DNA of 7,348 bases, from IMG/VR virus record IMGVR_UViG_2537562221_000013; one strand, given 5' to 3'. The stretch comes from a virus (lineage: Monodnaviria > Loebvirae > Hofneiviricota > Faserviricetes > Tubulavirales > Inoviridae). This document shows positions 1,428-6,943 of this stretch, in pieces. The first letter of the stretch is position 1. Each line of letters opens with the position of its first letter. A program made the translations under genes and the position numbers. The notes below the pieces were generated by a model. It saw only the letters and a program-made list of their open reading frames with translations. It was not told the DNA's origin and did no database searches.

Positions 1428-2672
1428 TCAGTTCAGGTTGTCCCGGAACAGTTCACCGCTCCTCGCGGCGCTGCGGGGCGTCGCCCTGCTCCGGTCAACC
1501 TTTCTGACCTGAAGCATCACCATAATATCAGTCTTGTTGCTTTCACTGGTACGGGAACCGAAGAAGCTCCAGCCGGAACTGGCCTTACTGTCTTTCTGTT
1601 CAGCAAGGCCACCAAGTAAAATAATATCACCATCTGCAAGGCTGACTTCGGTTGTTACATCACGCTTGATAAGGGTTGGCGAGTTATTGACGCCGGTTTC
1701 AGTGGTCACAAAGTTGGAAAGCTGCTGCTGAATCTTGAGATCCATTGTCCGACTTTTGATTGATGGCGTTACGTTAAACAAAACACCGCTGGAACGATAT
1801 TCAACGGATTGCGTGGTCGTATTGTTATTCACCGTAACACTGCCCAGTACTGGCACATCAGAGCCGACTGAAAAAGACGCTGAGGCATTATTTTTTACCC
1901 GCAGTCGTGGCGCACTGACAACAGTAAAACGACTGTCGGTTTTAAGCAGATTGAAAATGGCATCAATGGAGCCGGTTCGAATATTGATAAAATTATCCAG
2001 TCCGGCAGCACCAACTGAAATATTGAATTTATCAGACAGAATTTTAGCCGCTAAAAGAATGCCGGAGCCGTCAGACTGCGAGGTCTGAACCTCAAAAACA
2101 TAACCAGAAACAACCACTTCATCACTCATCGTATCCAGCGAAGTGACCAGTGTTTTCAGGATGGCGATATCCTCTTTCGTACCATAATAAACCAGAATAT
2201 CACCGGTTCGATTAATGTAGTTGCTTGCCCCTGATGAACCTTTTAGCGAATCGTCAGAAATCACGGCTCCACTGTTATTGAAGGAGCCTGAAACGTAGCC
2301 GCCAAGAATATCAGACAGGTAGGCAACAGAACGGTACTGAGGCGTATAAGTCCATGTATAACGTGGCTTAACCGGCTCTTTCGGCGTATAGGGCGCGATA
2401 AAATCAACACCCTTTTTCGTCCATATTCGAATGTTCATATTGCCAAGATAACGGGTTACAAATTCCCGTTCATCAATATCAGGTGTTAACCTGAATGTAA
2501 TCATTCGTTCATCATTAACAAGCTGTGGATCTAGCATATACGGGACTTTAAGCACCTCACTATAAATAAGAGAAATAGCCTCCGGTAGCTTGACTTTATT
2601 TAATTCAAGCTCTGACCCTGCGAAAGCACATGAAGAAAATAGTAGCGTTAATGCGAGTAAAATCTTTTTCAT
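1428..2672 (-). CDS. Filamentous-phage pIV-type secretin (outer-membrane export channel for virion extrusion), 414 aa
   Basis: N-terminal signal peptide MKKILLALTLLFSSCAFAGSE. The C-terminal half has secretin-like motifs (VVSAPRLRVKNNASASFSVGSDVPV, ILLGGLAEQKDSK). It is the last gene of the module, directly after pI as in Ff phages, and its start overlaps the pI stop by 1 nt (TAATG). Confidence 0.85.
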   Translation of the reverse strand: MKKILLALTLLFSSCAFAGSELELNKVKLPEAISLIYSEVLKVPYMLDPQLVNDERMITFRLTPDIDEREFVTRYLGNMNIRIWTKKGVDFIAPYTPKEPVKPRYTWTYTPQYRSVAYLSDILGGYVSGSFNNSGAVISDDSLKGSSGASNYINRTGDILVYYGTKEDIAILKTLVTSLDTMSDEVVVSGYVFEVQTSQSDGSGILLAAKILSDKFNISVGAAGLDNFINIRTGSIDAIFNLLKTDSRFTVVSAPRLRVKNNASASFSVGSDVPVLGSVTVNNNTTTQSVEYRSSGVLFNVTPSIKSRTMDLKIQQQLSNFVTTETGVNNSPTLIKRDVTTEVSLADGDIILLGGLAEQKDSKASSGWSFFGSRTSESNKTDIMVMLQVRKVDRSRATPRSAARSGELFRDNLN

Positions 2673-3697
2673 TATTTTTTCCCCGTATAAAGCGTCACAC
2701 GCTCACCATCAATAATTCCGCTCATCAACATCCCTTTGTAATTAAAACTGGATGCAGGAACGGCACGCAAAACACCGGCACCGTTAACAAGAATCACAAA
2801 CGCCCTGCCTTCACTGGTCATTCTCCCTGATATACGCCACTCGGTTGAAAGTGGCGGTTCAGCTGGTTCTGAGGGAGTATCTGGTGCTGGAGTAGCAGCG
2901 GAAGAACGAAACATGGCCGCATCACGTACATCTGTTGTAGCCAAATCTGGCGAGGGATCGCTTCGGCCAAACGTGCTGAAAAATGAGTAAATCAGCCAGC
3001 CTGACCCGATAAACATCAATGGAAAAAGCACAAGAAAGAACCTGACTTTGCCAGAATTCCAGATGCTCTGGCGTTTATCTGTCTGCTTTTCATTACCGTT
3101 ATTTCCTTCATAGCTTTTATAAAGTTCAAAAATATCAGGGTTATATTTATTGCGATAACTGGTGACGAGGTTGCTTTTATAGATTTTGTGGCCTGAATAT
3201 ACGTCAATGCAGTAATGATTATTCAGGCCCAACGCTTTCAGCTTGCGCATCCGGTAAGTTGTTTCTATTTTGTCTTTCAGAAAGCGAGCAATATTAGAAA
3301 GTGACTGATTTACAATAACCAAATCACAGCTAATACCCGTTTCAGGGTGCGTAAAATGACGATGTTCAGCAATAAATGATTTCTTCTCAGCCGTCATATC
3401 CTTATCGCTACCGAAGATTCGCCATGCTTCATCAATAACAATTAAATCACCAAACTGGCAAAAGCTCCCTTCCCCACCTTTAAAAGGAAAGAAATCTGCT
3501 TTAAGCACATCATCATTATCCACAACAATAATTTCTCCCGTTGCATCAGGATAACGTTCGGTGATTTTATCTTTTTGTAAACCATAAATGTTCGTCATAA
3601 CTCTCCGGCCGCTGGTAAATGCAGGAATAATGACATTGCAAACGGCTTCATAACTTTTTCCTGAGCCGGGTATGCCAATATATGCAGAAATAGCCAT
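2672..3697 (-). CDS. Filamentous-phage pI / Zot-family assembly NTPase, 341 aa
   Basis: N-terminal Walker A motif (GIPGSGKSY) and a downstream Walker B-like LIVIDEAW. A single internal hydrophobic segment (FFLVLFPLMFIGSGWLIYSFF) is followed by a Pro/Ser/Thr-rich C-terminal domain. This is the Zot/pI architecture, in the expected position between pVI and pIV. Confidence 0.85.
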   Translation of the reverse strand: MAISAYIGIPGSGKSYEAVCNVIIPAFTSGRRVMTNIYGLQKDKITERYPDATGEIIVVDNDDVLKADFFPFKGGEGSFCQFGDLIVIDEAWRIFGSDKDMTAEKKSFIAEHRHFTHPETGISCDLVIVNQSLSNIARFLKDKIETTYRMRKLKALGLNNHYCIDVYSGHKIYKSNLVTSYRNKYNPDIFELYKSYEGNNGNEKQTDKRQSIWNSGKVRFFLVLFPLMFIGSGWLIYSFFSTFGRSDPSPDLATTDVRDAAMFRSSAATPAPDTPSEPAEPPLSTEWRISGRMTSEGRAFVILVNGAGVLRAVPASSFNYKGMLMSGIIDGERVTLYTGKK

Positions 3698-3700
3698 AAC

Positions 3701-3988
3701 TCACCCTATAACAGGAATACGTCGAATAATAAAACGAGTAGCCATTGCGGAGATAATCATACTAATCCCCTGTGGTAATTTACTCAGGTTAATGAAGTAC
3801 CAGAATCCGTCTGATAAATTGGCAAACAGCGATGAGAGATTGCTTGAATCTGGCAGTAACTCAACAAGGATTTCAACGAAGCCCTGGACTACAAAATACA
3901 GCGCAAAGAATACGACGAATTTAATAATCAATGACCGGAATACAAAACCTAACAAAGTATTTAATGCACTAATCAGAATCCCAAACAT
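3701..3988 (-). CDS. Putative minor coat protein pVI-like, 95 aa, very hydrophobic
   Basis: Multiple hydrophobic segments, with size and position (between pIII and pI) matching gene VI of Ff-type phages. The assignment rests on position and composition, not on sequence identity. Confidence 0.65.
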   Translation of the reverse strand: MFGILISALNTLLGFVFRSLIIKFVVFFALYFVVQGFVEILVELLPDSSNLSSLFANLSDGFWYFINLSKLPQGISMIISAMATRFIIRRIPVIG

Positions 3989-4000
3989 AGTTGCACTCCT

Positions 4001-6045: not shown

Positions 6046-6297
6046 TCAAGCAGTACGAACCATCTTTATTACCTGTCCCACACCTACAGAAAAAAGCCAG
6101 AGCAGCAGGACAGAGTCAAAACCTAATGTCCAGTAATTTCCCATTGCAGAATAATCAATTTGATGAAATGGTTCAGAACGTACCATTATTGCCTGACATT
6201 CTTTTGCATTGTTCGCATTACATAAATAACCTTCAATACGGTAACCATTTTCAGGAATATGATTATCAAACTGAATATCGAAACCTGATGTATCCAT
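6046..6297 (-). CDS. Hypothetical phage protein, 83 aa, with a C-terminal transmembrane segment; in the pVII/pIX (minor coat) position but larger
   Basis: C-terminal hydrophobic stretch SVLLLWLFSVGVGQVIKMV. It follows the upstream gene after a 2-nt gap, with a weak AAGG RBS. Confidence 0.5.
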   Translation of the reverse strand: MDTSGFDIQFDNHIPENGYRIEGYLCNANNAKECQAIMVRSEPFHQIDYSAMGNYWTLGFDSVLLLWLFSVGVGQVIKMVRTA

Positions 6298-6299
6298 AA

Positions 6300-6617
6300 T
6301 CAGCCTTTTATTTCAGTAATGCCGCCATCTGATGAAATGTTATAAGTTACTCCTTCCCTCCCCTCCATTGACCAGACGCGAACATATACAGGTATCTGGA
6401 CTAACTTACCGATAAAATTATTTGCCTGATTCATTACACCGGCATTAACAAGAGCCTGAGATACACGAATAATAATCTGGTCTTGCTTAGTGCCACCAAA
6501 ACCATCAGGAATCTCTAAGCCAACACCAATTTCATTATAGTATCCCTGACCATTGACCTTATTACGCTGGCGAGCACCAAGCATTTTACCTTTTACAAAA
6601 AGACCATAATTAGACAT
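6300..6617 (-). CDS. Hypothetical phage protein, 105 aa; candidate ssDNA-binding protein (gene V position)
   Basis: Strong RBS AAGGAGAG about 5 nt upstream of the ATG. Gly-rich with predicted beta character. The function is inferred from gene order only. Confidence 0.5.
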   Translation of the reverse strand: MSNYGLFVKGKMLGARQRNKVNGQGYYNEIGVGLEIPDGFGGTKQDQIIIRVSQALVNAGVMNQANNFIGKLVQIPVYVRVWSMEGREGVTYNISSDGGITEIKG

Positions 6618-6628
6618 ATCACTCTCCT

Positions 6629-6943
6629 TTAATGCCAGTTACTGGCATGTGAAATACGGTTATAATCGAAAATTAAACCTTTCTCATAAACCCATGATGG
6701 AATTTTGGCTGGTTTGGCTTCAAGAGTACGAACCAACGGAACAACGTTATTAGAATCCGGTGACTCACAATAAAAGTTAATATCTATTCCGAAAGAAAGT
6801 AATTCTTTACGGTGTCGGTAGAATGTAGGTTTCGGTAACATCTCTTTCATGTTCGCGCCCTGCTTCCACAATAAATATGTAGACTGTATTTTTCTTGTGA
6901 GATTAATTATTTTTTCATCAGTTAATATGGTATTTTGATTCAT
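6629..6943 (-). CDS. Hypothetical phage protein, 104 aa; candidate gene X-like product (an independently initiated C-terminal part of a replication initiator) or a regulator
   Basis: GGGAGA RBS 6 nt upstream of the ATG at 6943. The frame stays open upstream of the ATG through the remaining 48 bp of phage DNA and into the IS1 end, which fits an internal start inside a larger gene now cut by IS1. Confidence 0.5.
   Translation of the reverse strand: MNQNTILTDEKIINLTRKIQSTYLLWKQGANMKEMLPKPTFYRHRKELLSFGIDINFYCESPDSNNVVPLVRTLEAKPAKIPSWVYEKGLIFDYNRISHASNWH

Follow-up and report, generated by a model that had tools for sequence, protein, structure and literature searches.

The stretch of DNA analysed here, referred to below as the window, comprises the 7,348 nt of IMG/VR virus record IMGVR_UViG_2537562221_000013, classified in the Inoviridae, and the block under study occupies positions 1428–6943 on its minus strand. 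A sequence-only reading had described this block as eight consecutive minus-strand genes in Ff-like order, and all eight open reading frames (ORFs) were found where that reading placed them, running through pX, pV, an 83-aa membrane protein, pVIII, a terminator hairpin, pIII (PuvA), pVI, pI and pIV. Based on comparison with its relatives, the window is very probably the structural, assembly and export part of one copy of the CUS-1/YpfΦ prophage, inactivated recently by the insertion sequence IS1. YpfΦ (also called CUS-2) reportedly comes from Yersinia pestis biovar Orientalis and CUS-1 from Escherichia coli O18:K1:H7.

The genes are as tightly packed as had been described. The stop codon of pI and the start codon of pIV overlap as TAATG at 2672, and the remaining gene junctions are gaps of 2–12 nt with AGGAG-type ribosome-binding sites. 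The absence of frameshifts and premature stops also held, every ORF having the same length as in intact relatives and encoding a product 98.8–100% identical to the Y. pestis protein. The three small proteins counted with the morphogenesis module are present, but two of them, pX and pV, belong to the replication module.

Gene IV (1428–2672) encodes a predicted outer-membrane secretin of 414 aa with the signal peptide MKKILLALTLLFSSCAFA. It matches Pfam Secretin (PF00263, 1.3e-24, 87.1 bits against a cut-off of 27.5), phrog_1012, annotated as "protein IV of M13" (8e-138, covering residues 1–394 of 414), and the f1 pIV entry 7OFH in PDB (1e-10). The gene immediately follows that for pI and the two are coupled, an order kept in Y. 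pestis NCTC5923 (L021), Brenneria alni (L022) and Phytobacter sp. V91 (L023), and on both domain content and gene context we assign the product as a pIV-type phage secretin. Identity as the type II secretion system (T2SS) protein GspD was considered and rejected, as the score against TIGR02517 is 103.9 bits versus an equivalog cut-off of 351.35 and the match is confined to the C-terminal secretin region. The RefSeq name "type II secretion system protein GspD" for pIV is thus generic and misleading. A protein search of a deposited phage collection found pIV to be up to 49% identical to proteins of gut-metagenome inoviruses; a DNA search of that collection returned only four short matches at 66–69% identity and no stand-alone CUS-1/YpfΦ record.

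Gene I (2672–3697, 341 aa) matches Pfam Zot (PF05707, 2e-26, 93.1 bits against a cut-off of 20.3) and phrog_197 (6e-93), with no match in a PDB sequence search. Its translation contains a Walker A motif (GIPGSGKS), a Walker B motif (LIVIDEAW) and one predicted membrane span at residues ~219–241 with the hydrophobic stretch FFLVLFPLMFIGSGWLIYSFF, features by which we assign it as a Zot-type assembly NTPase. In copies of the NC101 type (L013, L014 and L017), gene I is shortened in frame by 15 nt (1,011 versus 1,026 nt) and is still annotated as intact; this length polymorphism falls in the periplasmic or C-terminal part of pI.

The profile searches that had been proposed as a check support pVI, pV and pX in addition to pI and pIV, and are less conclusive for the two remaining named coat proteins. 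The gene VI-like minor coat protein (3701–3988, 95 aa) matches DUF2523 (1e-20) and the pVI-type phrog_974 (7e-30), and also the Ace-like phrog_306. The putative major coat protein precursor encoded by gene VIII (5778–6011, 77 aa) is identified by phrog_2186, "virion structural protein" (4e-29), and falls below the Pfam Phage_Coat_B cut-off (18.9 bits, 1.6e-3, against 23.5); its translation shows the features expected of such a protein, namely a signal peptide, acidic residues at the N-terminus, a hydrophobic core and basic residues at the C-terminus. By gene order it would be YPO2277 in the numbering of PMC4266046, and mutation of YPO2274, YPO2277 or YPO2279 abolishes particles (PMC4266046).

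The gene III-like adsorption or cap protein PuvA (4001–5713, 570 aa) matches phrog_3942 (8e-252), a PHROG of unknown function, and has no Pfam, NCBIfam or PDB match. Its assignment comes from position, size, a signal-like N-terminal segment, a C-terminal hydrophobic anchor and the PuvA literature, in which puvA encodes a virion protein required for receptor binding (PMC4266046). What remains of the gene in E. coli strain 510016 carries the annotation "virulence factor PuvA domain protein". RefSeq/PGAP gives pIII/PuvA as 520 aa, beginning at a GTG at codon 51 of the 570-aa ORF. This start is probably wrong, 50 codons too short, and the longer ORF probably right, because the Brenneria (L022, 3702–5417) and Phytobacter (L023, 1794–3509) relatives, at ~65% amino acid identity, have kept residues 1–50 together with the ATG and a GGAG ribosome-binding site.

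Between the genes for pVIII and pIII, an intrinsic-terminator-like hairpin followed by TTTTAC was located by a hairpin scan at 5744–5766 (minus strand), agreeing with the terminator that had been suggested after pVIII. The 68-nt intergenic stretch containing it has a minimum free energy of -16.7 kcal/mol, and an equivalent hairpin with a different stem sequence occupies the same place in the Brenneria and Phytobacter relatives, which are ~70% identical. A promoter scan of the window gave no evidence of internal promoters (17 sites, 15.9 expected from shuffles), and an Rfam scan of the window at gathering thresholds gave no match.

Upstream of pVIII lies the gene for the 83-aa membrane protein (6046–6297), in the position of pVII/pIX. 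It matches phrog_3679 (9e-32), is named "membrane protein" in RefSeq relatives and is presumed from its position to be a minor coat protein. Gene V (6300–6617) encodes a predicted single-stranded DNA-binding protein of 105 aa (Pfam Putative_G5P, 1.2e-52) that is invariant in 19 other copies. The pX equivalent (6629–6943, 104 aa; G2P_X_C, 4e-35) has its own GGGAG ribosome-binding site and lies inside a remnant of gene II (6629–6991, codons 231–350 of 350) that also matches G2P_X_C.

The element itself is already known. Window positions 529–6991 have 99.4% nucleotide identity, over 6,451–6,466 bp, to both tandem copies in Y. pestis NCTC5923, each bounded at the corresponding end by an exact dif site, and the pIV, pVI, pVIII and pV proteins are 100% identical to their YpfΦ counterparts in Y. 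pestis. The secretin of YpfΦ for which a model has been published is likewise 100% identical to the window pIV. Among 5,426 complete E. coli genomes, the comparison set used throughout, 120 have matching DNA and 99 have at least 80% of it, at 98.7–99.9% identity. Carriers include UTI89, NU14, F11, APEC O2:K1, NC101 and ETEC strains, with 99.5–99.9% identity to the copies in UTI89, NU14, F11 and APEC. The E. coli copies are always at the dif locus, between the yde fimbrial/AraC-pseudogene side and hipA, and matches fall in a median of two places per genome and up to five. Two copies are present in N10, M9682-C1, 82.0312 and Y. pestis.

These observations agree with the literature, where CUS-1 and YpfΦ share 99% identity across 7.1 kb, use XerCD to integrate at dif, occur as tandem repeats (2–4 copies for YpfΦ) and produce virions (PMC4266046). 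The published YpfΦ modules are replication (YPO2274–75), morphogenesis (YPO2276–78) and secretion (YPO2279–80), the last comprising a Zot-like protein, YPO2279, and a secretin, YPO2280 (PMC4266046). The secretin has been described as "GspD2" with an AlphaFold model, and the Zot-like protein has likewise been discussed and modelled (PMC10354491). The window copy shares with YpfΦ and CUS-1 the gene order, the end at which dif lies and the pair of accessory ORFs beside it, and differs in having an IS1 after codon 230 of gene II, a truncated IS2 on the dif side and four private substitutions. Virions have been shown for YpfΦ (PMC4266046), whereas the window copy is known here from its sequence. 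It is a defective copy of the CUS-1/YpfΦ family and not a member of a different family. Its gene set is incomplete, gene II being split and the helix–turn–helix (HTH) regulator lying outside the window, as does the variable cargo region of the prophage.

The sequence-only reading had suspected that the replication region was disabled, and this is confirmed by the gene II junction. The gene II frame runs upstream of 6943 to 6991/6992, where it meets IS1 at TTATTGGGCGTCTCAATGGTGATGCTGCC, a split after codon 230. The window contains the left 357 bp of this IS1 (6992–7348, plus strand), with the inverted repeat GGTGATGCTGCC and insA at 7047–7322; it is 100% identical to the IS1 of E. coli 510016 (L018) and 99.4% identical to the IS1A copies in L001 and L011. 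An intact gene II product of 350 aa has, in a profile search of an intact relative, a Phage_CRI domain at residues 1–231 and G2P_X_C at 253–336, and the window remnant is identical to residues 231–350 of WP_000568110.1 at 119 of 120 positions. On these domain boundaries, IS1 sits between the nuclease and C-terminal domains and detaches the catalytic part. By analogy with Ff biology, the window copy would be unable to nick its origin or start its own replication, and IS1 probably also cuts the downstream genes off from the gene II promoter.

This junction is private to the window in our comparison, being absent from all 5,426 complete E. coli genomes. Window positions 1–4166 differ at one base from the closest genome, that of E. 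coli 510016 (NZ_CP025851.1), which has the same IS2 junction. This genome carries a single partial copy (one place in the record) in which pIV, pI and pVI are intact and everything from pIII through gene II is deleted; an inverted IS1 at codon 82/83 of gene II (L018, 6110–6879) is joined to pIII at window position 4166. A single rearrangement linking the two IS1 junctions was considered and rejected as insufficient, as the orientations and both junctions differ. The two may be independent hits in gene II or the products of a multi-step IS1 rearrangement.

Two IS1 junctions in gene II of two near-identical genomes raise the possibility of selection for silencing of the phage, with insertions in gene II stopping costly production and the rest of the prophage decaying as neutral cargo. 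We regard this as unlikely, given that there are only two events, perhaps steps of one rearrangement, and that IS1 is abundant, a median of 10 places per genome matching the IS1 end of the junction query.

Only four window-private substitutions occur in ~6.4 kb among the ~20 copies compared. They are V34M in pI (position 3598), the replacement of a G·T by an A·T pair in the stem of the terminator (5757), G61D at the start of the membrane span of the 83-aa protein (6116) and a proline-to-threonine change in pX/pII (6898). Because the junction is private and the window has a single mismatch in 4,166 bp to 510016, the intact ORFs most likely reflect a recent IS1 insertion and not retention by the host.

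Several observations weigh against the interpretation of a recently inactivated copy without host retention. All three private coding changes are nonsynonymous, with no synonymous change beside them; constraint may already have relaxed, or the pattern may be chance, three changes being too few for a call of relaxed selection. Strain 510016 retains intact pIV, pI and pVI despite the loss of pIII through gene II, as a single and equally young case. Any remaining part of gene II, or a second, intact tandem copy, would be located past the end of the window, which falls within IS1. Finally, the source genome is outside the collections searched, and the recency of the insertion rests on comparison with relatives.

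The tandem arrays typical of this family, described above for E. coli and Y. pestis genomes and for YpfΦ in the literature (PMC4266046), suggest another way in which the window genes could still be functional. An intact tandem copy or a co-resident inovirus would supply pII in trans, and the window genes would make virions as part of a productive system. A possible helper is UPφ, a group of dif-integrated phages in which genes II and V of UPφ901 are >85% identical to those of YpfΦ (PMC7307601). However, the closest genome, 510016, has only its single partial copy, IS1 probably separates the window genes from the gene II promoter, and the window extends no further than IS1. We consider supply in trans rather unlikely, and a recently inactivated copy remains our preferred interpretation.

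The sequence-only reading had asked whether the host retained the export apparatus for its own use and proposed dN/dS as a check. Purifying selection is evident, with pN/pS of 0.05 for pIV, 0.18 for pI and 0.26 for pIII (~0.15 pooled from the 83-aa ORF through pIV) and dN/dS of 0.06–0.34 against the Brenneria relative. It is of the kind expected within a phage population, low pN/pS fitting an actively transmitted phage. Of the 5,426 genomes, 95 retain at least 80% of pI+pIV and 104 at least 80% of gene II (~97 at ≥95% identity), and pI+pIV are not kept preferentially over gene II.

The degenerating alleles that had been named as evidence against retention were found in the population. FEX669 has a deletion and a frameshift in pIV, SCU-101 has a deletion fusing pI to pIV, strain 8178 and its relatives are without pIV, pI and pVI, and LR882978 has only prophage fragments left. 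In relatives from Klebsiella spallanzanii, Erwinia tracheiphila and Phytobacter, pIV is deleted, fragmented or frameshifted. When copies decay, pIV or pI goes missing just as readily as the rest of the genes.

Domestication would mean that, once phage replication was lost, selection kept pI and pIV, perhaps along with the coat proteins, for a host function such as secretion, envelope effects or virulence; in our judgment it is very improbable. In its favor are the eight intact ORFs beside a broken gene II, the retention of pIV, pI and pVI in 510016 and the modest in vivo fitness effects of CUS-1 (puvA) and YpfΦ (PMC4266046). Against it, the private junction and minimal divergence from active phages make intactness uninformative about selection, and the population counts, the decayed alleles and the low pN/pS expected of a transmitted phage all point away from host use. 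The only replication-defective lineage seen, comprising the window and 510016, is too young to test constraint. There is a very slight chance that in this lineage the loss of replication was selected and the ATPase and secretin were kept as a channel serving the host or a satellite; if so, the lineage would be an early stage in the domestication of an inovirus egress machine.

The steps of the Ff life cycle are well established, and carried over by homology they suggest how an intact copy of this prophage would work. The pII protein would nick the replicative form and start rolling-circle replication, and pX and pV would sequester the single strand. The inner-membrane Walker ATPase pI and the outer-membrane secretin pIV would form the export channel, in which pVIII would take the place of pV during filament extrusion. 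The 83-aa protein may cap the leading end, with pIII (PuvA) and pVI capping the trailing end and mediating the next infection, and the terminator after gene VIII would set a high ratio of pVIII to pIII. With the catalytic domain of pII detached by IS1, the window copy would yield virions only if pII were supplied in trans.

The remainder of the window is the dif side of the prophage and its flank. The association with dif that had been noted is borne out by an exact string match to the 28-bp E. coli dif, GGTGCGCATAATGTATATTATGTTAAAT, at 529–556 (minus strand), marking the prophage end beside the accessory ORFs. An exact dif is found at the same prophage end in Y. pestis NCTC5923, Phytobacter sp. 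V91 and Klebsiella (L025). Beyond dif are ~200 bp of chromosomal flank and an internal fragment of orfB of IS2, an IS3 family element (1–324, plus strand), in which the ORF at 19–336 reads as IS2 transposase. The fragment is truncated at ~321–325 and joined directly to the chromosomal flank of dif; this junction is identical in 510016, where it is annotated as a truncated IS2. In other carriers the yde fimbrial/AraC region next to dif is variously truncated or disrupted by insertion sequences, with IS1 there in N10 and VR50.

Two accessory ORFs of no known function lie between pIV and dif on the minus strand. The first encodes 65 aa (697–894; phrog_6642, 1e-53; WP_001298440.1 in relatives) and the second a basic protein of 82 aa (1091–1339) with 78% amino acid identity in the Brenneria relative and a dN/dS of 0.16. 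Two ORFs without known function are also present at the att end of YpfΦ (PMC4266046), and by position the 65-aa ORF corresponds to the YPO2280a/YPO2281 pair beside the att site. This accessory region (697–1339 in the window) varies between copies, as seen in a comparison of L006 and L020 (4700–5360), L013 and L015. The 65-aa ORF is deleted or frameshifted in the NC101 type, FDAARGOS_1261 and the ST131 strain MB1159, and is replaced by a different plus-strand ORF of 246 nt in the Z1323CEC/LR882978 type.

Strain-specific cargo is found beyond the HTH regulator, outside the window (L001, 14892–16453; L003, 12343–13982; L017, 8227–9662; L018, 7843–8610). Examples are a PD-(D/E)XK nuclease with DUF6953 in N10, an STM4504/CBY_0614 family protein in SCU-484 and the zinc-binding protein ECs_2282 in 510016. 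This region may act as a hotspot for genes of defence or other accessory functions.

More distant relatives keep the same plan. Those in Brenneria alni and Phytobacter sp. V91 have 70–76% nucleotide identity to the window and the same gene order, including pIV. The Brenneria alni relative takes up the full length of its 9,278-bp contig; it may represent a complete phage genome or an episome. The Phytobacter relative adjoins an exact dif (6545), and its pIV match is split over two reading frames.

The window also shares the organization of Ff (f1/M13/fd) and IKe/I2-2: II/X, V, small membrane protein(s), VIII, terminator, III, VI, I and IV. Common to Ff and the window phage are a pX arising from within gene II, coupling of genes I and IV and a pIV-type secretin. 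Similarity at the sequence level is low, the window pIV having 27.6% identity to that of I2-2 over 39% of its length and pIII having no match in PDB or Pfam. Where Ff has pVII and pIX, the window phage has the single 83-aa protein. Ff phages are not known to integrate, whereas the window phage integrates at dif and has a repressor-like HTH gene and accessory ORFs.

CTXφ of Vibrio cholerae reportedly has no secretin gene, in contrast to the window phage with its pIV, and exits through the host T2SS secretin EpsD. It has ctxAB where the window phage has its two small ORFs. CTXφ resembles YpfΦ in XerCD/dif integration, an RstR-like repressor upstream of rep and the order coat–pIII–pVI(Ace)–pI(Zot) (PMC4266046). 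The secretin contrast with CTXφ drawn by the sequence-only reading is thus correct, but a self-encoded pIV in a dif-integrated phage is not new, as it has been published for CUS-1/YpfΦ (PMC4266046; PMC10354491) and UPφ (PMC7307601). The UPφ phages of the Enterobacterales are like the window phage in being dif-integrated in tandem repeats in E. coli and relatives with their own genes I and IV. They carry genes I–VI and VIII, are IKe-like, and share <20% identity with YpfΦ in the genes for morphogenesis and export (PMC7307601).

As a discovery the window carries little weight: CUS-1/YpfΦ is a published element, and its integration at dif, self-encoded secretin and Zot-like ATPase have been published as well. 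It has value for annotation, as E. coli genes near dif that are called "GspD" or "zonular occludens toxin" encode the phage proteins pIV and pI. It also documents the decay of these prophages by IS1 hits and adjacent deletions, in which the export genes are not preferentially spared.

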